Source of the DNA: a virus
Lineage: Duplodnaviria; Heunggongvirae; Uroviricota; Caudoviricetes
Length of the DNA: 11,888 nucleotides
Strand: one strand, 5' to 3'
Virus record (IMG/VR): IMGVR_UViG_2896601577_000007
Shown here: one piece after another, positions 520-11,888 of the stretch
Position numbering within the stretch: position 1 is the stretch's first letter
Layout of the letters: the number at the start of each line of letters is the position of its first letter
Program-made: the position numbers and the translations under genes
The notes under the pieces: generated by a model
Database searches by the model: none
The model's input: the letters and a program-made list of their open reading frames with translations, nothing else
What the model was told of the DNA's origin: nothing

Positions 520-736
520 CATCCCACCATTTCAGGGCAATCAGCGCCTCAGCACGGGAAAGGGATATTCTCTGTATATCAGCATCCTCCCCACCAGCCA
601 CCCGGTATACCTCTGATAAATCACGAACATTTTTCATGTCTGCTTTCCCGGACGTTTCCATCAGTGCGTTAATATCATCCCCGTATAGCGTGATTGCGCG
701 ACGATACCAGCCAGAGAGATAACCATAGCCCGGCAT
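520..736 (-). CDS. 3' portion of the FtsH-like peptidase-domain gene, cut off by the IS2 end
   Basis: 72 codons of open frame run directly into the IS2 terminus at 519/520; the last 16 aa of the track ORF 470..736 are encoded by IS2 sequence. This frame is open upstream to 763 and overlaps the 661..1020 ORF. Confidence 0.45.
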
Positions 737-1020
737 ACCTGGTCTATCAGACGTAACCTGGTGTCATCATTCGAGAGGGTGTAAGACTTAACCTCAGCCA
801 CATTCCGTGGATAGTTGGCGTGCCATACCGCGACAGCTCCACATTCATCAACATCGCCGCTAAGGTAGGTTTTTGCCACTCGGTTATTACCCGATAACGC
901 AATTTCTACCTCCTGTATGCCGAAAAACCATGCGGCTATCGCATGACCTGCTTCATGTATTGCAAGATGTCTGGGCCAGCGATAGCTGCCGAACTCAATA
1001 ATGATGGGTTGCGTACTCAT
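661..1020 (-). CDS. Zn-metallopeptidase-like protein, FtsH/M41-type domain (HEAGH motif), possibly frameshifted
   Basis: LAIHEAGHAIAAWFFG followed by SLAGIVAQSRYTG resembles the FtsH protease-domain pattern (HEaGHA ... GGRaAE ... TG..DI). Internal ATG at 1020 is preceded by GAGGGA; the track ORF extends to 1098 without a Shine-Dalgarno sequence. Confidence 0.6.
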   Translation of the reverse strand: MSTQPIIIEFGSYRWPRHLAIHEAGHAIAAWFFGIQEVEIALSGNNRVAKTYLSGDVDECGAVAVWHANYPRNVAEVKSYTLSNDDTRLRLIDQVCRAMVISLAGIVAQSRYTGMILTH

Positions 1021-1030
1021 ATCTTCCCTC

Positions 1031-1465
1031 TCAGAATGGCGTTTCATTGTCGAATGGTGGGCGTTGGTCGTATTCATCACGGGATGGCTGCTGCGCACGT
1101 CTCAGCGCGTCCGTTGCCTGTCCCCGCTGTCCTGCCTTCCCGCCGGGGCGTACCGTTCTGGCGCTGATCACACTGTCGGCTACTACCTGATACCCCTGCT
1201 GTGTACCGCCGTCCTGCCCTGTCCACTGGTTGAGTTGCATATTGCCTGCCACGCTCACAAGGTCGCCTTTCTGGTGCTTTGCCAGCGCATCGGCCTGCTT
1301 CCCAAAAGCAATAACGCCCAGCCAGAAGGTTGACTCTCCCGCCTCTGCCGCATTACAGGGGAGAGACACCGCCAGCCGCGCCATAGCCATGTTGTTACCG
1401 TTCGTTGTGGTGCGGGTCTGGGGATCTGCCACCAGCCGCCCGTATGCTGAAATTTGTGCTGTCAT
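1031..1465 (-). CDS. ssb: Single-stranded DNA-binding protein-like (OB fold, acidic PF tail)
   Basis: 144 aa; OB-fold-like pattern (RLVADPQTR...NG...ARLAVSL...FWLGVIAFGKQADALAKHQKGDLVSVAGNMQLNQWTGQDGG..YQVVAD) and C-terminal ...PPFDNETPF similar to the SSB DDDIPF tail. GAGGGG Shine-Dalgarno sequence upstream of ATG at 1465. Confidence 0.65.
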   Translation of the reverse strand: MTAQISAYGRLVADPQTRTTTNGNNMAMARLAVSLPCNAAEAGESTFWLGVIAFGKQADALAKHQKGDLVSVAGNMQLNQWTGQDGGTQQGYQVVADSVISARTVRPGGKAGQRGQATDALRRAQQPSRDEYDQRPPFDNETPF

Positions 1466-1553
1466 TTTCCCCTCACTGGATTATTAGTTTTGCTAATGAC
1501 GATTTCTTAATGTGGGACACCTGCCGATTTTTTTTCATAGTAAGCAAAAATAG

Positions 1554-1813
1554 TGTTGTCTCTGTTGTCTTTGTTGTCTCACGGCTCTACAGGCCGCGCC
1601 ACGTCTGGGTTTTGCTGAGACAACATTTGCAATTTCGTGTTGTCTCACCCGGCATAAATGTTGTCTCACTGCCTGCCAGACTAAAAACACACTTTCGCCC
1701 TGTTGTCTCAAAATGGCTAAATGTTGTCTCGGTGTTGTCTCAGAAATTAAAATAAAATCCTTATAAATCAATCTCAATTACAAATTGAGACAACAAAGAC
1801 AACCGAGACAACA
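1554..1813. repeat. Iteron array: at least 8 direct and 3 inverted copies of TGTTGTCTC around an AT-rich core; putative origin of replication
   Basis: Direct copies at 1554, 1563 (TGTTGTCTT), 1572, 1639, 1659, 1701, 1722, 1733; inverted GAGACAACA at 1617, 1787, 1805; AT-rich stretch 1742..1790. It lies immediately 3' of the primase gene. Confidence 0.8.
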
Positions 1814-1839
1814 CTAAAACTACGCATGTGAAGAAATAA

Positions 1840-2289
1840 TTATTCTTCTGGCTGGCTGCTTTCCTCTGCCATGAAATTGAGTACATAGACGCGAATCTGT
1901 CGCCCATCCTCCCTTACTCGCCCCTGATAGCCTCGCCCGCTCGTTGGTGGTGTAAGCATTCCTGCATTCTTTAGAACTTCGGCAAACTGTTTGGTATTGA
2001 AGCCCTTTGCAATCTCCTGCTCAAACGCTGCCGGGAAGGTGTAGAAAATTATCGGGTCGCCGTCGTGGTTCCCCTTCTTCCTGTACCCGGCTAAATCACG
2101 GATGGGTAAATCGCGCGGGTCATAACCCAGCGGCGCGAATCGACTCAGCCCATAGGCATTCAAAAACGCCTCCGTCTGCTCAATAATCTGCTGGTGCTCT
2201 TTGTTCCCCGTGCCGAACTCACGCAACCACGCATTGTAGCTGTGCTGTATCGCATCACGGCACGTTTGATCATCCCAGCCAGTAACCAC
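1840..2289 (-). CDS. Primase/helicase C-terminal fragment (third frame segment)
   Basis: GTG-initiated track ORF with no convincing Shine-Dalgarno sequence; its frame is open upstream to about 2394, overlapping the end of the 2334..3890 ORF. Confidence 0.55.
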   Translation of the reverse strand: MVTGWDDQTCRDAIQHSYNAWLREFGTGNKEHQQIIEQTEAFLNAYGLSRFAPLGYDPRDLPIRDLAGYRKKGNHDGDPIIFYTFPAAFEQEIAKGFNTKQFAEVLKNAGMLTPPTSGRGYQGRVREDGRQIRVYVLNFMAEESSQPEE

Positions 2290-2333
2290 GCCACCCAGCA
2301 GTAAAGCAGCCTCCAGAATGGCGAACCTTGCCC

Positions 2334-3890
2334 CTACACGGTGAACCTGTTCCCATAGTCGGCAGGAATAAGACTGCGCCAGCGGGCTTCACAGTCACGA
2401 ACGGTATCAATGGCCTGCTGCTGGTGGCCTGCAAGCCATCTGATCCACTCCCGCCCGGCAGCGCCGTGATTGCTCTGCCACGCGGATTTTAATGCGTCTG
2501 CATGGTCTTTCCCTGTCTGGTGCTCATGAAAGCGCACCGCCTTACTTAACGGGATATTCAGCAGGCGCACCAGTTGCCCCGCTTTTGTCTTGCGTCCTGC
2601 GGAGGCAATGAACGTTTCTAAATCCATTTCCCCGGTGCTGATTGCCACGGTACGCCAGCGTTTTAGATCCCGATTTCCGCCTTCTTTCGCGCCCTGCAAT
2701 TTCCCTACGCCGTTAAACAGGGCATAGGCAGACTGAGAAACGCTTATCGGGTCTGCGCCCTGTCCGACTTCATCCAGCGGCATCAGTCCGTCATTGTGGG
2801 CGGCGGCCTCGTTTATCATCCCCAGCGCCGTCCCGTACCACGTCAGGCGCAAGGCATCAGGGTTCCCGTATAGACTGCTAGCCACGTTCTGCGTGGTTGT
2901 TTTCCCGGCGCTCGATTGCTCATAAAAATGAATCCCGAATCCGTCACGCTCTGCCACCCCGATTAATGGCGCTGCCAGTGCTGCGGCAATGCCTGTCATC
3001 ATCGCGTAGTTGCCGTATGCCAGCCGCGCGACACTGTTGCGCCAGCTTTCCGGCGTTCCTGCTACGGTATACCCGGCAGCGGCTGAACTGCGCCCGCTGA
3101 ACAAAACAGGCCGCTCAGGTGTGCCGATGATTTCCCCGTCCGGCATGATGTATGCCCCGCACTGCCAGCCTGTAGCATGAGCAACGCGCCACAATTCACG
3201 CGAGCCGCTCCGCTGTAGCCAGTCGGCAAGGATCGCCCGTAAACTGCTTTTGGTCGTGACGTTAACCCCACCAGCTTTCAGGGTGCGCCAGCCTTCACGC
3301 TCGCCAATATCAGCCAGCGGGATAGCCGCTGTTGTCGGTATGCCTGCACCGAATGCCAGCCATGAGATAATAAGATACTGATCTTTGTCGTCGCGTCCCG
3401 TGCCGATAACCTCCAACGGGGAACATAACCAGCTTTCAGCGTTGACGATCTCCCCGCTTTCCTTGTCCACCTTCGGCGTTACCCAGAAAACGCCATCTTT
3501 GCGGCTCTCAATGTGGGGTTTTAGTGGATCTTTCTCTGGATGGTCAGTTTTACCGCCCTCAATGGCTTGCAATCGCGGTTTCACGGCTTCCCCTTGAATC
3601 TGGTACATCGAATCGTTAAACGCAGCCGTAGCGACTTCCAGCCCGTTTTGCTGGCGGTAATCGTCCCAGTCGGCTTTGTAGTCTGTCGGCGGCAGCGCCA
3701 CCCAGCCAGCCACGGATAAGGCGGCTTTCTCTGCGGCATCTTTGCCCGTGTTCGCCTGGTCGTCCTGCTGGTGGTCGTTATCTGCGGCAATGATAATCTG
3801 CGTGGCTGGATATATCCGGCGCATCACTTCGGCAACGGGTAGCAGGTTGCCCGCGTCAATTGCTGCCACTGCCAGCGCGTCCGGGCGCAT
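2334..3890 (-). CDS. Primase/helicase central fragment: distal TOPRIM (DxD) plus P-loop region (DUF927-like)
   Basis: IIIAADNDHQ (TOPRIM DxD) 37 aa after the annotated Met, and a Walker-A-like SSAGKTTT. Its ATG overlaps the stop of the upstream fragment (TGATG). The frame upstream of the Met encodes LATALSVHL, which continues the TOPRIM motif. Confidence 0.85.
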   Translation of the reverse strand: MRPDALAVAAIDAGNLLPVAEVMRRIYPATQIIIAADNDHQQDDQANTGKDAAEKAALSVAGWVALPPTDYKADWDDYRQQNGLEVATAAFNDSMYQIQGEAVKPRLQAIEGGKTDHPEKDPLKPHIESRKDGVFWVTPKVDKESGEIVNAESWLCSPLEVIGTGRDDKDQYLIISWLAFGAGIPTTAAIPLADIGEREGWRTLKAGGVNVTTKSSLRAILADWLQRSGSRELWRVAHATGWQCGAYIMPDGEIIGTPERPVLFSGRSSAAAGYTVAGTPESWRNSVARLAYGNYAMMTGIAAALAAPLIGVAERDGFGIHFYEQSSAGKTTTQNVASSLYGNPDALRLTWYGTALGMINEAAAHNDGLMPLDEVGQGADPISVSQSAYALFNGVGKLQGAKEGGNRDLKRWRTVAISTGEMDLETFIASAGRKTKAGQLVRLLNIPLSKAVRFHEHQTGKDHADALKSAWQSNHGAAGREWIRWLAGHQQQAIDTVRDCEARWRSLIPADYGNRFTV

Positions 3891-4597
3891 CAGGTGAACT
3901 GAAAGGGCCGTCGCCAGCCCTCGGCAATTAAAACGCTCTGCGGCGATTCTGGCGCGTTTACGGCGTGATATGCCCCGCGCTTTGCTGAACCTGTCAGGAG
4001 TCGCTTCTCTCCCTGCGGTGTAATGGTTTGCGCTGCTGCCACTGCGCCGGATTCGTCCACCAGCTCCAGCAATAACGAACCATCCGGCATAACCGGATAG
4101 TTAAACCCGGTCAGCCCTTTTGATTGCAGGTAATCAGATTCGCCCTGTGTGGCACTCTGGCGCATTCCGGCATACAGATGGGCAAACGTAGCCCTTCGCT
4201 GCTCTGCGTCCTCTGCTGCCTGTTTCTGGCGCTCCTGCTCACGCTGCTGGCGGTCAGCTTCCAGTTGCTCTCTTCTATGGCTCGCTGCCGCCGGGTCGGT
4301 TTGCGCTGCCCGGTAATCAATACCCAGCACGTCAGCGGCAAGCTGTGCCGCCTCCGTGGTGTCGCAGTTGTTTACCCGCTTGATTAAATCCAGCCCGTCA
4401 CCAGCGCCACACTGGTTGCAGATAAAGCTACCGCGCCCGTTGTCGTCGAATCTGAAACGGTCTTTTCCACCACATGCAGGGCATGGAGAATGGCGGCGCG
4501 ATGAATCAGGCACGTCGATAGACAATTCAGCCAGCACATAAGGCCAGCGCCCTGCTGCGGCGCTGGTCACTTCGCGGATAAGGTCGATATTACGCAT
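3890..4597 (-). CDS. Primase N-terminal fragment: Zn-ribbon plus start of TOPRIM (catalytic Glu)
   Basis: CPACGGKDRFRFDDNGRGSFICNQCGAGDGLDLI is a P4 alpha-type primase zinc-binding motif; the fragment ends ...SVLIAEG then WRRPFQFT*. ATG at 4597 is preceded by AGGAGG; the track ORF extends to 4630. Confidence 0.85.
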   Translation of the reverse strand: MRNIDLIREVTSAAAGRWPYVLAELSIDVPDSSRRHSPCPACGGKDRFRFDDNGRGSFICNQCGAGDGLDLIKRVNNCDTTEAAQLAADVLGIDYRAAQTDPAAASHRREQLEADRQQREQERQKQAAEDAEQRRATFAHLYAGMRQSATQGESDYLQSKGLTGFNYPVMPDGSLLLELVDESGAVAAAQTITPQGEKRLLTGSAKRGAYHAVNAPESPQSVLIAEGWRRPFQFT

Positions 4598-4666
4598 GGT
4601 TGCCTCCTGCCACGGTCGCGCCCATATCATTAATCATGCTTTGCCATATCTCGCGCCCGATGTCAG

Positions 4667-6206: not shown

Positions 6207-6417
6207 TGGTTGCCCCCCGTTTTCCTGACATTTCGCCACCTTCCAGCAGGAAATGAACGTCACGAACGGCGAGATCCAATATCGCGAGTAACGCCTTCAG
6301 TTTTTCGTCTCGTGAGGGAGAGTTGCTCACCAGAATGTCATTAATCACTTCTGTCAGTGTGATGATCTGGCTTGTGCGTTCGAGGGGATCCATATGCACA
6401 TCGTAGGTTTTAATCAT
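6199..6417 (-). CDS. Hypothetical small protein (72 aa)
   Basis: ATG at 6417 preceded by GGAGGTG; overlaps the stop of the first operon gene by 8 nt; the track ORF extends to 6507. Confidence 0.6.
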   Translation of the reverse strand: MIKTYDVHMDPLERTSQIITLTEVINDILVSNSPSRDEKLKALLAILDLAVRDVHFLLEGGEMSGKRGATNE

Positions 6418-6604
6418 GTGCCACCTCCATGCGGATACGACCAGCAAAAAAGCAGACGTGATCGCGCACCAGAGAACGGCGAGCATCGCGTTCAGACTCG
6501 GCAGCAATATGATGAATTTTGGCGGTAATTGTCGGGCAATCGCGGCGAACTGCGGCGATAATCCAGATAAATTGCGGTTTTTGGGTAGGGGTAGTAGCCA
6601 GCAT
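6410..6604 (-). CDS. Hypothetical small protein (64 aa), first gene of the small-gene operon
   Basis: ATG at 6604 with AAGGAGG (rc of 6613..6619) 8 nt upstream (MLATTPTQKPQFIWIIAAVRRD...). This is the 3' end of the track ORF 6410..7165, which I do not accept as a single CDS. Confidence 0.6.
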   Translation of the reverse strand: MLATTPTQKPQFIWIIAAVRRDCPTITAKIHHIAAESERDARRSLVRDHVCFFAGRIRMEVAHD

Positions 6605-6631
6605 AGCGGCAGCCTCCTTTGTGTTTAAGGA

Positions 6632-6670
6632 GTCACCGCCTGAGTTTCCACGCTCTGAAATGGCGGTGAC
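6632..6670 (-). promoter_or_regulatory. 9-bp-stem hairpin in the 5' leader, just upstream of the Shine-Dalgarno sequence of the first operon gene
   Basis: GTCACCGCC (6632..6640) and GGCGGTGAC (6662..6670) are perfect inverted repeats around a 21-nt loop; a 5-bp stem with UUCG loop on the minus-strand RNA lies at 6711..6724. Confidence 0.35.
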
Positions 6671-6793
6671 GTTAGCAGGGGTGGAAATACCGGACACAAA
6701 GGAAACCGGCCTACGCGAACGTAGCCCCACTAACGCCACCATTGATACAGTACGGACTAGGCCGCTGATTTGATGTGCGTAGTGATCGGACAC

Positions 6794-6816
6794 AAAAAAA
6801 GACGCTTTCGGCGTCT
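6794..6816 (-). terminator. Intrinsic-terminator-like hairpin followed by a U-run (minus strand)
   Basis: Minus-strand RNA reads AGACGC-CGAAA-GCGUCU followed by UUUUUU (plus-strand A-run 6794..6799). Confidence 0.5.
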
Positions 6817-7103
6817 GTGTCGCCCTGAGTGTGTTCGGGTTTCCACGCCCGGTTGCTGATTTTGCAGCAACGCTTGGACTATAACAGCTTTTCTCTGCTA
6901 GGTGGTCATACCAGATAAAACCGTAACCCTTTAAGAGTTTTTCCTGTGCACGGCTCACCATCTTTTTGTTGAGGGTAAGCGCCTCGCGTACTGGTAACGG
7001 AACTCCGGGCGCTGCGGTATCAATATCAGGTTTTATAAGGTTGTAAGGGTTAACATTTGTTAACAGGCCAGCCAGATTAAAGGCTTCTTTCTGGGCGGCA
7101 GGT

Positions 7104-7286
7104 TCATTCAGTATCACGGCGCACCTCCACGAACTCATTAACGAATCTCTCCAAAGGCTGAACACATGGCGACTGATAGCCCTCGCGGTAAAAGGTCACT
7201 CGGTTATGCTCGACGCGCTCAACGGTCACTACAGCCCCGTGCGAATCCTTGTAACGGCTTCCCGGCATCGGATTGTGGTTACGCAT
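7104..7286 (-). CDS. Hypothetical small protein (60 aa)
   Basis: GGAGG 5 nt upstream of ATG 7286; overlaps the stop of the upstream 50-aa ORF by 8 nt. Confidence 0.55.
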   Translation of the reverse strand: MRNHNPMPGSRYKDSHGAVVTVERVEHNRVTFYREGYQSPCVQPLERFVNEFVEVRRDTE

Positions 7287-8101: not shown

Positions 8102-8533
8102 TTATGCGGCGGTGAGATTGTCCGGGTATAGATTGAGAATGTCGGCAATTTCAGGCTGAGAAAGTCCCTGATAGCCGCCAGCGTCGGCGTTATGGTTCAC
8201 AAGCCGAATAACTTTTAGAACGTCACCGCGCCCGGTAAAGCGATAGCGTAAATGTGGCCCTATCCCGTCGGGGTTCTTTTCGTCTATACGCTCAAGCTGA
8301 ATATCAAGCCTGCGCTCTAACTCGCTGGCGTAGTTCCTTCCAGACGAAAGGCGGCAATAACGCAGAATGTCATTTTCTGTCCATCCCTCTATACCAGTAC
8401 GCAGCATATAGACTCTGGCACGATGCTTTTTCGGTGTGCGCTTTGGTGCTTGAAGGGATTTTGTAAGGGGCGTAACATCAGATACGCGAATATCTGAATT
8501 AGCCGCCTGTAATGGGCGGTTTTTCTTTTCCAT
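8102..8533 (-). CDS. Hypothetical protein (143 aa), translationally coupled to alpA
   Basis: Its start shares one nucleotide with the alpA stop (TGATG). Confidence 0.6.
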   Translation of the reverse strand: MEKKNRPLQAANSDIRVSDVTPLTKSLQAPKRTPKKHRARVYMLRTGIEGWTENDILRYCRLSSGRNYASELERRLDIQLERIDEKNPDGIGPHLRYRFTGRGDVLKVIRLVNHNADAGGYQGLSQPEIADILNLYPDNLTAA

Positions 8534-8736
8534 CAGGCCACCTTCCCGCGGCGTTCTGCCAGCCAGTTGTGAATCTCAACCGCATCAAACGCAGTTATTT
8601 TTTCTCCCAGCTTTACCGGACGTGGTAGTGAACCGTTTCTTACTTTACGGTCGATGGTGGATACACTAACGCCCAGCAATTCAGCCAGGCGGAAGCGTCT
8701 GATATAGCCTTTTGTAGGGATAGTGTCGATGTTCAT
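8533..8736 (-). CDS. alpA: AlpA/Vis-family helix-turn-helix transcriptional regulator
   Basis: 67 aa; RFRLAELLGVSVSTIDRKVRNGSLPRPVKLGEKITAFDAVEIHNWL is a typical AlpA (P4 Vis / CP4-57 AlpA) signature. Confidence 0.9.
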   Translation of the reverse strand: MNIDTIPTKGYIRRFRLAELLGVSVSTIDRKVRNGSLPRPVKLGEKITAFDAVEIHNWLAERRGKVA

Positions 8737-9465: not shown

Positions 9466-9741
9466 GTGGCTTCCATTTCCATCAGATGTCCTTCCTGCTC
9501 CGCTACTGAAGGCGTGGTGCGTAACGGCAAAAGCACTGCCGGACATCAGCGCTATCTCTGCTCTCATTGCCGTAAAACATGGCAACTACAGTTCACTTAC
9601 ACCGCCTCTCAGCCCGGTACGCACCAGAAAATCATTGATATGGCCATGAATGGCGTCGGATGTCGCGCCAGTGCACGCATTATGGGCGTTGGCCTCAACA
9701 CGGTTTTACGTCACTTAAAAAACTCAGGCCGCAGTCGGTAA
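9466..9741 (+). CDS. insA: IS1 InsA (91 aa, GTG start)
   Basis: [66 protein letters not shown]... closely matches IS1 InsA. Confidence 0.9.
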
Positions 9742-10163
9742 CCTCGCGCATACAACCGGGCAGTGATGTGATTGTCTGCGCTGAAATGGACGAACAGTGG
9801 GGCTACGTCGGTGCTAAATCACGTCAGCGCTGGCTGTTTTACGCGTATGACAGGATACGGAGGAGGGTTGTGGCGCACGTCTTCGGTGAACGCACTCTGG
9901 CCACACTGGAGCGTCTTCTGAGCCTGCTGTCGGCCTTTGAGGTCGTGGTATGGATGACGGATGGCTGGCCGCTGTATGAATCACGCCTGAAGGGAAAGCT
10001 GCACGTTATCAGCAAGCGTTACACTCAGCGCATTGAGCGACATAATCTGAATCTGAGACAACATCTGGCAAGGCTGGGACGGAAGTCACTGTCGTTCTCA
10101 AAATCGGTGGAGCTGCATGACAAGGTCATCGGGCATTATCTGAACATAAAACACTATCAGTAA
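9660..10163 (+). CDS. insB: IS1 InsB (167 aa), transposase catalytic part
   Basis: ...[58 protein letters not shown]...[13 protein letters not shown] matches IS1 InsB with several substitutions. Confidence 0.9.
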
Positions 10164-10473: not shown

Positions 10474-10505
10474 TGCGTCACCTTTTACGCTGCGCCTTAT
10501 TTTGT

Positions 10506-10561
10506 GATTGAGCCAGGCGGTAAGGCTTCCCGCTTTTCGCCCCGTCGAGCTAGGCTCAATC
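10506..10561. repeat. 9-bp inverted repeat GATTGAGCC / GGCTCAATC separated by 38 nt, between the int stop and the cargo gene start
   Basis: Perfect 9-bp arms at 10506..10514 and 10553..10561; no flanking U-run on either strand. Confidence 0.4.
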
Positions 10562-10568
10562 TATTCAG

Positions 10569-11828
10569 TTAGTTCGCCCTTCTGAGAGGCGTTACGTTGT
10601 AGTCTTTTCCGCTTTCCAGTGCCACTAGCAGATCAGCCCACTGTGCCAGTGCTGCTTTACGCTCATCAAAATACTGATGGCGGTTATAAATCCCCTCTAC
10701 GCCCTTAATGCGATGATTGAGGCATCGTTCCGCCACAACAGGATCAACACCCAACGCTGCTAAATGAGTACGTGCGGTGCGTCGAAAGTCGTGAATCGTG
10801 AAATTAGGCACATCCGGCATTTCGGCGCGAACCTTAGCCAGTGCTACGGGTAAAGTGCTTTCCTGAATATGTGGGATCATTCTGTTTTGCATCTTCCTGG
10901 CCGGAAGCACCCATGCGCTATTACATGAAAAGGTGTGTAGCTCTCTCAACCATTCAACGGCTGGGGAAGGTAGAGGTATATCAATAGGGTCTCCGTTTTT
11001 GCTGCGTTCTTCCGGCAAATGCCATACCGCACCATCTAAATCAAACTCTTCCCATCGTGCGGCGCATAATTCCATTTTGCGGACGCATAACGCTAACAGT
11101 AATTTGAACGTGATTTCGTTCTGGCGACTGAATCCCTTAGCCGTGCGCATGGCTTTGAATAGCTGGATTAACTCATCGCGGGTTAACCAGCGGTCACGGG
11201 CAGCTTCTTTCCCTCCGGCGTCTGCCACCTCAAAGGCTGAACAGGGGTTAATCTCTAGCGCGTGCCGTTTGATTCCGTAGTCGAATATGCGGCGCGTCCA
11301 TCTCAGCACGTCCGTTGCTATGGTCGGCGCTCCACGGTCAACAATACCTTTCAGCATGTCATCGATATGGCGCGGTTTCACGTCCTCTACCTTCATGCTG
11401 CCAATGCAGGGGTTTATATCTTTGTCGATACGGCGGCGGAGTATATCGGGGTGCTTCCAGCGCGGGAGGATCTGACGCTCAAAGTATTCAGCGGCAAGCT
11501 CTGAAACGCGCATAGCGTTCTTCTCTGCTTCCATCTTCGCCAGTGCTTCGGTTTTGTGCTTCTGCTTCTCTCCTGCAACGTCATAGCCCAGCGCAACGCG
11601 AGCCGATAGCTCTTTGGCTGTCTCTCTGGCCTTTGATAGTGATAGCTCGCTATACGAACCAATTAGCATGGCGCGGGACTTCCCTGCGAGTTTATAGCGG
11701 AATCTCCATGTGGGGGTTTTGTCGGCTTCACGGTAACGTAGGTATAAACCGTTACCGTCTGCCCGCCCCTCGAATCGCTCTCCGCTCTTAATCCATGCGC
11801 GGATCTGCATGTCTGTTAGTTTTGGCAT
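10569..11828 (-). CDS. int: P4-type tyrosine integrase (site-specific recombinase)
   Basis: 419 aa from MPKLTDMQIRAWIKSG...; N-terminal P4-like arm-binding region (GNGLYLRYR...WRFRYK) and C-terminal catalytic region (HDFRRTARTH...LNH...IYNRHQY). The track ORF extends 20 codons further to the window edge. Confidence 0.95.
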   Translation of the reverse strand: MPKLTDMQIRAWIKSGERFEGRADGNGLYLRYREADKTPTWRFRYKLAGKSRAMLIGSYSELSLSKARETAKELSARVALGYDVAGEKQKHKTEALAKMEAEKNAMRVSELAAEYFERQILPRWKHPDILRRRIDKDINPCIGSMKVEDVKPRHIDDMLKGIVDRGAPTIATDVLRWTRRIFDYGIKRHALEINPCSAFEVADAGGKEAARDRWLTRDELIQLFKAMRTAKGFSRQNEITFKLLLALCVRKMELCAARWEEFDLDGAVWHLPEERSKNGDPIDIPLPSPAVEWLRELHTFSCNSAWVLPARKMQNRMIPHIQESTLPVALAKVRAEMPDVPNFTIHDFRRTARTHLAALGVDPVVAERCLNHRIKGVEGIYNRHQYFDERKAALAQWADLLVALESGKDYNVTPLRRAN

Positions 11829-11858
11829 TTTGCGAATATCCAAACTTTGAATAGGGGG

Positions 11859-11882
11859 TGTACCCAAAGCAATGTACCCAAA
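11859..11882. repeat. Direct repeat TGTACCCAAA x2 (14-bp spacing) upstream of the int start
   Basis: Copies at 11859..11868 and 11873..11882, in the int 5' region at the window edge. Confidence 0.35.
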
Positions 11883-11888
11883 CCTCAT

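Follow-up and report, generated by a model that had tools for sequence, protein, structure and literature searches.

A proposed iteron-type replication origin downstream of the primase-helicase gene of a Gram-negative PICI-type satellite

The segment at 1525-1839 is very probably the vegetative replication origin of a satellite of the Gram-negative PICI type, the kind of island found between yicC and dinD in E. coli relatives. The window, by which we mean the whole 11,888-nucleotide stretch of DNA analysed here, carries at this position a dense array of 9-bp iterons with opposed sets around an AT-rich segment, directly 3' of a primase-helicase gene. The array falls in a known class, that of PICI-type satellite origins, and leaves the understanding of how such origins work unchanged. 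What goes beyond annotation is the occurrence of many specificities on one scaffold, together with a candidate five-residue specificity determinant in the initiator. Coordinates of the features discussed below are collected in Table 1.

We determined the anatomy of the array by searching both strands for the unit TGTTGTCTC. Ten exact copies lie within 1554-1813, on the plus strand (starts 1554, 1572, 1638, 1659, 1701, 1722 and 1733) and on the minus strand (starts 1617, 1787 and 1805). A copy with one mismatch, TGTTGTCTT, starts at 1563 and brings the array to 11 matches at no more than one mismatch; a copy with two mismatches at 1796-1804 on the minus strand, seen by eye in the sequence, brings it to 12 sites. 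The initial annotation had described a dense 9-bp repeat array with copies in both orientations, at least eleven of them in about 260 bp. The array is confirmed, and the count stands when one mismatch is allowed (the 10 exact copies and the copy at 1563). Across the whole window, 13 matches at no more than one mismatch were observed against 2.35 ± 1.46 expected, and none of 200 dinucleotide shuffles reached 13. The two matches beyond the array (48-56 and 10055-10063) are at chance level, and the second of these, inside IS1, is the eleventh exact copy in the window. No second cluster of the 9-mer was found in the window at the same threshold. A literature search for the 9-mer itself gave no published match, returning unrelated primer and aptamer papers only.

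The sites are regularly placed. Start-to-start spacing is 9 bp inside the triples, and the internal sites are separated by 11, 21, 42, 21 and 21 bp. These internal spacings are multiples of about one helical turn, so the internal sites line up along roughly one side of the double helix. A 31-nt inverted repeat (1551-1581 and 1786-1816) is made up by the two outer triples, and its arms are 97% complementary.

Table 1. Features of the proposed origin and of the surrounding island (positions in the window).
Feature	Position	Strand	Remarks
ssb (island single-strand DNA-binding protein)	1031..1465	-	PF00436, E 5.6e-17; next gene after the origin
Conserved A/T-rich flank	1525..1553		primase strand CACTATTTTTGCTTACTATGAAAAAAAA; ..TTGCTTATATATACAAAAA in relatives
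Whole array	1554..1813		12 sites of TGTTGTCTC / GAGACAACA; proposed island replication origin
Distal tandem triple	1554..1580	+	starts 1554, 1563 (degenerate), 1572; other inverted-repeat arm
Conserved GC-rich block	1581..1616		..GGCCGCGCCACGTCTGGG..; separates the distal triple from the lone inverted iteron
Lone iteron, opposite orientation	1617..1625	-	exact match
Two iterons 21 bp apart	1638..1667	+	starts 1638, 1659; auxiliary half of the long-form origin
Conserved non-iteron motif CTGCCTGCCAG	1669..1679		in the 42-bp gap; primase strand CTGGC(T/A)GGCAG
Three iterons, far side of the AT-rich segment	1701..1741	+	starts 1701, 1722, 1733
AT-rich segment, predicted DNA-unwinding element	1742..1786		45 bp, about 16% G+C by direct count; between opposed iteron sets
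Primase-proximal tandem triple, 9-bp period	1787..1813	-	primase-coding strand TGTTGTCTC GGTTGTCTT TGTTGTCTC; one inverted-repeat arm
Spacer, primase stop codon to first iteron	1814..1839		conserved TCACAT core, often palindromic in relatives (e.g. CTCACATGTGAG)
Wing codons (beta-hairpin of the C-terminal winged helix)	1885..1923	-	QGRVREDGRQIRV; residues co-varying with iteron sequence
Primase-helicase gene	1840..4630	-	Zn ribbon, Toprim, DUF927 helicase, C-terminal winged helix; three ORFs
AlpA-family regulator	8533..8736	-	island context
Tyrosine integrase	10569..11888	-	island context

Three minus-strand sites at 1787-1813 and three plus-strand sites at 1701-1741 oppose one another around the AT-rich segment at 1742-1786. 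The least stable 40-bp duplex of the entire 11.9 kb lies at 1746-1785 (nearest-neighbour dG -40.3; mean -56.4, sd 4.0). The AT-rich core proposed in the initial annotation is therefore real, in base composition and as a minimum of duplex stability, but it is not central, with three sites between it and the primase gene and nine beyond it. Its position is kept in relatives. Outside the iterons, several iteron types have in common the CTGGC(T/A)GGCAG motif, an A/T-rich TTGCTTATATA-like element past the last triple and a spacer centred on TCACAT. The A/T-rich flank at 1525-1553 may serve the downstream operon as its promoter, or may be another site that melts easily. For the spacer that separates the stop codon from the first iteron, a DnaA box was considered and dropped because of its inconsistency: TTWTNCACA is present at 0-1 mismatch in only 20 of 45 loci. 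A promoter and terminator scan of 1380-1920 gave sites no more numerous than in shuffles.

The minus-strand primase gene has its stop codon at 1840-1842. With the end of the first iteron at 1813, the array starts about 27 nt past the stop, directly 3' of the gene as first annotated. Missed at that stage was that the initiator gene is split by two frameshifts into three ORFs, at 3890-4630 (Zn_Ribbon_Prim), 2334-3890 (Toprim_3 and DUF927) and 1840-2289. The gene is 92% identical to an intact 919-aa orthologue from E. coli TKEC21-59. WP_021548885.1, from E. coli D5 / TKEC21-59, is an intact type-A primase. Relative to the 919-aa orthologue, the gene lacks one nucleotide in each of two GGGG runs, near 3921 (codon 227) and near 2355 (codon 749). 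It reads as a pseudogene, and the deletions may represent real decay or homopolymer sequencing errors. In annotation, the three ORFs can be merged into a single primase-helicase pseudogene. The window's own copy of the origin is intact. Given the apparent pseudogene and the IS damage to the island, the origin is probably silent unless a type-A primase acts in trans or the frameshifts are sequencing errors. One IMG/VR contig combines a type-A origin with an intact 930-aa primase.

The initiator combines a DUF927 helicase with a C-terminal winged helix. Initiators of PICI/SaPI-type origins are self-loading helicases with a C-terminal winged-helix DNA-binding domain, and by analogy with them this one would be self-loading. 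In sequence searches its helicase region resembles SaPIbov1 Rep (8tch, E 1.8e-6) and Cch (5dgk). For the C-terminal domain, PDB sequences gave no match in either sequence or profile searches, and a fold search with a predicted structure was the informative approach. The AF2 model used was built with diverse C-terminal fragments and has a pLDDT of 83.7; a model built with 85-95% identical full-length proteins had a pLDDT of 42 and was discarded. Structurally, the C-terminal domain is closest to its iteron-binding counterpart in SaPIbov1 Rep. A relationship between the DNA-binding tail and P4 alpha was also considered and rejected, since hhalign of the C-terminal profile against the alpha C-terminus gave a probability of 0.2%.

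The gene content and order of the window are those of a Gram-negative PICI. The island genes int, AlpA, AntA, DUF4222, ash/icd-like, primase and ssb, with the array between the last two, all lie on the minus strand, and the array occupies a 375-bp gap between the co-directional primase and ssb genes. The order int, alpA, (...), icd/ash, DUF4222, pri, array, ssb (and perC) is that of EcCICFT073 and EcCIRM13514. The features that mark a Gram-negative PICI are int, alpA, unidirectional transcription, pri-rep followed by ori, a size of 8-15 kb and a specific att site. The island fits this description, with size and site taken from intact relatives (about 13 kb, between yicC and dinD). We saw no capsid gene, no terS and no recognised interference gene in the window, and domain searches of the window found no parA, parB or terS and no Rep_3-family protein. 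An IS1 (InsA and an IS1 transposase domain) is inserted at 9466-10163 on the plus strand, between the int side and the alpA side, and an IS3-family orfA (HTH_Tnp_1) occupies the left end at 1-473 on the minus strand, where relatives have perC and more cargo. This insertion, together with the truncation of the left end by orfA, indicates that the island is decayed.

A copy of the array about 93% identical to that of the window occurs in 33 of 5426 E. coli genomes, in an island of about 13 kb between yicC and dinD. These copies always adjoin a gene annotated as 'TOPRIM and DUF927 domain-containing protein', and the array itself is free of annotated CDSs. No E. coli complete genome contains the window at more than 93% identity over the island, and the origin region has no match in the phage database. 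Several smaller features accompany the island genes. Rfam models score above the gathering threshold on the minus strand for a C4 antisense RNA (6659-6746), isrK (6795-6871) and c4-a1b1 targets (6832-6884), which make up a P4-type RNA immunity module inside or beside an ash-family ORF at 6410-7165. The int-alpA RNA motif (RF02996, 60.6 bits) is found at 10494-10560 on the minus strand, directly downstream of the integrase gene. The ORF that follows ssb (661-1098, minus strand) has an HEAGH motif and a sub-threshold Peptidase_M50B-like match (E 0.0056), and stands where relatives have perC.

We compared the array with the corresponding region of related islands by scanning one genome per species. 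This gave 66 primase-relative loci at 52-95% identity, about 60 of them usable. In 58 of these roughly 60 loci a dense array of an 8-9-mer lies within the 400 nt after the primase stop codon, directly 3' of the initiator gene as in PICIs and SaPIs. The repeat differs by lineage, with at least nine different repeat sequences across the relatives; the iteron classes are GAGACAAC, GAACCAAC (the commonest), GAACCGAC, AAACCGACC, TACCCGAC, TAACCCGT, TAACCCAC and TGGGATAA. No second iteron cluster was found elsewhere in the relatives' 8.7-kb loci. Two relatives, L054 and L048, have a full primase with a recognisable wing and no array within 3 kb on either side; the wing of L054 is of the GAACCGAC type.

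The scaffold on which these repeats are arranged is conserved. It begins with a spacer of about 25 nt, three tandem inverted sites and an AT-rich segment of about 45 bp, followed by sites at +0, +11, +32, +74 and +95. Beyond these it continues with an inverted site, a GC-rich block and a further tandem triple, and it ends in the A/T-rich TTGCTTATATA-like element. The primase-proximal triple is in the same place in all iteron types. Origins of two of the types, A and B, align without gaps over about 330 bp, with 12 of 12 sites in register and the same two bases differing at each site, and their spacers are only 61% identical. In type A, invariant columns make up 97% of iteron positions and 49% of other positions; for type B the corresponding values are 62% and 10%. 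Judged from these alignments, the iterons are under purifying selection.

Many relatives have only the primase-proximal half of this scaffold, that is, three inverted sites, the AT-rich segment and three further sites, at about 0-160 nt past the stop, with ssb or another gene following directly (L010, L015, L019-L021, L024, L026-L032, L035, L037, L039, L046, L051 and L055). For this reason we take this half, 1701-1813 in the window, as the core origin. The gene downstream of the array varies among relatives and may be ssb, a perC-like gene or others. In E. coli UMNK88 (L071 2700-2900) a type-B origin ends right after a conserved CTGGCTGGCA motif and abuts P22-like DNA-ejection genes, and similarity between that island and the window stops at about 1925-1937 of the window, just before the wing codons.

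Some of these islands have been deposited as circular 'plasmid' records of 17.8-21.8 kb from Klebsiella and Raoultella, with int and origin included. Three of them, CP031370.2 (19.2 kb), CP031371.2 and NZ_CP146545.1 (17.8 kb), are labelled 'non-mobilizable plasmid'. The circular records carry integrase, AlpA/AntA, the Toprim-DUF927 primase and an iteron origin, with 11 GAACCAAC sites in CP031370.2. They are consistent with episomal replication, and may be replicating episomes, excised circles or assembly artefacts.

The repeat sequence and the initiator change together. Iteron type tracks residues 873-919 of the primase, where identity within types exceeds identity between types by 0.21-0.27, compared with no more than 0.11 elsewhere in the protein, and none of 2000 label shuffles matched this signal. 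Fixed differences between types A and B fall at residues 893-897 (GRV-RE in A, RKSPRI in B). A type-A and a type-B protein (L004 and L008) are 100% identical at residues ~340-690 and 57% identical in the last 40 residues. Over the roughly 60 loci, wing sequence and iteron class correspond one-to-one, and this extends to single-base changes in the iteron that go with one or two residue changes in the wing: GAACCAAC to GAACCGAC pairs with RKS..N to RKT..T, and TAACCCGT to TAACCCAC with KQH(T/A)F to KQHVF. The N-terminus of SSB, encoded on the other side of the array, has no association with iteron type (0.011). Because the C-terminal codons physically adjoin the array, part of the co-variation could be linkage; simple linkage is possible but argued against by the negative SSB control and by the switching of all sites in register. 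This comparative co-variation is the evidence for cognate specificity, and suggests that each iteron sequence is matched to its own initiator.

Gram-negative PICIs are islands of the form int-alpA-...-pri-rep-ori (Fillol-Salom et al. 2018, PMC6092414). [quoted passage not shown] In the RefSeq records of EcCICFT073 and EcCIRM13514, pri is followed by the iteron region and then by ssb and perC. The window resembles Gram-negative PICI origins as described there in having its array 3' of pri-rep, two opposed iteron sets, an AT-rich region and, within the family, ssb/perC next, and it has the same order of int, alpA, icd-like gene, DUF4222, pri, ori and ssb. Islands at yicC-dinD and at yicC-yicG are listed in Table S1 of PMC6092414, and the yicC-dinD site of the E. 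coli relatives is the one listed for EcCIRM13514. The initiators differ: those of EcCICFT073 and EcCIRM13514 are 584-607-aa proteins of the 'DNA primase family', whereas the initiator described here is a 919-aa fusion of Zn ribbon, Toprim and DUF927. The iterons differ as well, being TGTTGTCTC in the window, CTGTCTACC in EcCICFT073 and TGTTCACC in EcCIRM13514, and unlike EcCICFT073-type origins the window has a long form with 12 sites and an off-centre AT-rich segment. EcCIRM13514 (L069 8554-9046) uses the exact P4 type-1 repeat TGTTCACC, as does P4 crr (L072 4291-4590), and its primase shares 49% identity with P4 alpha across 477 residues. With its P4-like repeat and alpha-like primase at yicC-dinD, EcCIRM13514 indicates that the same att site hosts islands of two unrelated replicon types.

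The SaPIs offer the closest parallel for the initiator. Through a C-terminal winged helix, SaPI Rep helicases bind a group of 6-12 short iterons that lies directly 3' of the rep gene (PMC9371898, PMC7581432 and Ubeda et al. 2007 as cited there). The SaPI origin, as outlined in the same sources, has an AT-rich region with at least two iterons per side in opposite orientation. The DUF927-containing Cch is related to SaPIbov1 Rep (PMC7581432). Like SaPIbov1 Rep (PDB 8TCH), the initiator has a DUF927-type helicase, a C-terminal winged helix and iterons downstream of its own gene, and by analogy it may load itself; the likeness comprises sequence homology of the helicase and predicted fold homology of the C-terminal domain, whose identity to the SaPI counterpart is only 11-16%. 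Unlike the SaPIs, the window's island has a Gram-negative host, a fused Toprim (DnaG-type) primase rather than a separate AEP primase, iterons of 9 bp rather than 5-6 bp and an AT-rich segment that is off-centre rather than roughly central.

P4 shares with the island its satellite lifestyle, a fused primase-helicase-origin-binding protein, short (8-9 bp) iterons in both orientations and, in the window, C4/isrK immunity RNAs; P4 crr, too, directly follows the primase gene on its 3' side and has tandem copies at 9-bp intervals. It differs in its helicase (SF3/D5-type in alpha, DUF927 here) and in its C-terminal domain, P4 being absent from the structural matches of that domain. The P4 unit is the type-1 octamer TGTTCACC, read from NC_001609, rather than TGTTGTCTC, and the P4 origin is bipartite, with ori and crr carrying the same repeats 4.5 kb apart, whereas the window and the relatives' loci have a single cluster. 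Iteron plasmids (pSC101, F, R6K, RK2, P1) likewise place initiator-binding repeats beside an AT-rich unwinding element and have winged-helix initiators. Their iterons are 17-22 bp and their initiators Rep_3-type, in contrast to the 9-bp unit and the initiator that is itself a primase-helicase. Iteron-plasmid Rep is not a helicase and needs DnaA and DnaB-DnaC; the window is without a convincing DnaA box. The initial annotation had likened the array to iteron-type origins of both the P4 ori/crr and the PICI kind. That general architecture is supported by the opposed iterons, the AT-rich melt site, the position 3' of the initiator and the PICI gene order. The closest match, however, is the PICI/SaPI Rep-type origin and not P4 ori/crr, because the helicase and the DNA-binding domain differ from those of P4 alpha.

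A mechanism for initiation can be proposed on this basis. Drawing on sequence, co-variation and structural homology, we infer that the C-terminal winged helix of the island primase-helicase would read the 9-bp iteron T-GAGACAAC-A with its beta-hairpin wing. Initiators, probably as two hexamers, would assemble on the opposed sets, that is, the triple at 1787-1813 and the three sites at 1701-1741, and the 45-bp AT-rich segment between them would melt. The later steps are modelled on SaPI Rep and EcCICFT073. By this analogy the MCM-like DUF927 helicase would load itself, the Toprim domain would make primers for extension by host polymerase, and the SSB encoded downstream would coat single strands. 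The six further iterons at 1554-1667, phased at about 21 bp, would form an auxiliary half, absent from many relatives, that probably raises local initiator concentration or controls copy number. The literature searched contained no replication, binding or melting experiment on an enterobacterial Toprim-DUF927 primase or on the present element.

Other functions for the array have to be weighed against an origin. Like P4 crr, it might act in cis as an enhancer or in the control of copy number, with the true origin elsewhere in the island. P4 crr does lie immediately 3' of alpha and 4.5 kb from ori, and its type-1 repeats point in both directions, the tandem ones at a spacing of 9 bp; the distal half of the array (1554-1667) is without an AT-rich segment and is missing in many relatives. 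Against this, there is no second 9-mer cluster in the window or in the relatives' 8.7-kb loci that could serve as the separate origin, and the least stable duplex of the window lies inside the array with opposed iterons flanking it, which is the initiation design of PICIs and SaPIs. We consider a crr-like role for the whole array unlikely; as an auxiliary role limited to the distal half it is plausible. Regulatory sites are less probable again. The repeats could be operators that control an ssb/perC operon or terminate the primase operon, and the placement of the array in a 375-bp gap between co-directional genes, the weak promoter-like matches at 1724-1753 (+) and 1777-1749 (-) and the conserved A/T-rich TTGCTTATATA-like element after the array would all suit this. 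The array nevertheless follows the primase and not the variable downstream gene, which makes an operator array very unlikely. Moreover, the repeat sequence shows co-variation with the primase wing but none with SSB, twelve phased sites with an unwinding element would be an unusual operator design, and the two promoter-like matches compare with 1.0 ± 1.0 in shuffles.

PICIs can carry helper cos or pac sites (PMC6092414), and repeat arrays are typical of parS-like centromeres, which raises the question of a packaging (cos/pac) or partition (centromere-like) site. We regard this as highly improbable: terS, parA and parB are absent from the window, the array has no similarity to any phage record, and the cos of a helper phage would not change in step with the primase wing of the island. 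For a cluster formed by chance, or for an intergenic repeat that is common and dispersed in the host, the one point in favour is how short the unit is. We find this explanation barely credible given the 0 of 200 shuffles and the location of the array always beside a Toprim-DUF927 gene. The host-repeat variant is ruled out by the distribution of the 451-bp region, which occurs in 33 of 5426 E. coli genomes at a median of one place each.

Returning to the array as an origin, the co-variation leads us to a broader proposal, which we advance tentatively and with a confidence just short of even. Enterobacterial Toprim-DUF927 primase-helicases and their origins may form at least nine orthogonal initiator/origin pairs on one gap-free scaffold of about 330 bp, with specificity set by about five wing residues (893-897, plus ~904, on the first wing strand) and about 12 iterons switching in concert with the wing. 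In the switch from type A to type B, the same GA-to-AC change occurs at every site. If the proposal is true, swapping residues 893-897 would be expected to swap origin specificity, and the C-terminal domain (~771-919) would be expected to favour the iteron of its own type, TGAGACAACA versus TGAACCAACA. Recognition of DNA by the wing would then follow a readable and engineerable code, and these islands would offer a tractable case of a protein co-evolving with multi-copy binding sites, possibly because co-resident satellites need to keep their replicons free of cross-talk. They might also be a source of mutually orthogonal small replicons for enterobacteria.

Finally, two ORFs run across the array, at 1405-1755 on the plus strand and 1535-1777 on the minus strand, and had been suspected from the outset to be artefacts of the repeats. 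This suspicion is borne out. Neither has a Pfam match, no CDS is annotated at their place in RefSeq relatives, and their position, strand and presence are not conserved, so both calls can be dropped. The ORFs exist because the 9-mer contains no stop codon in any frame.
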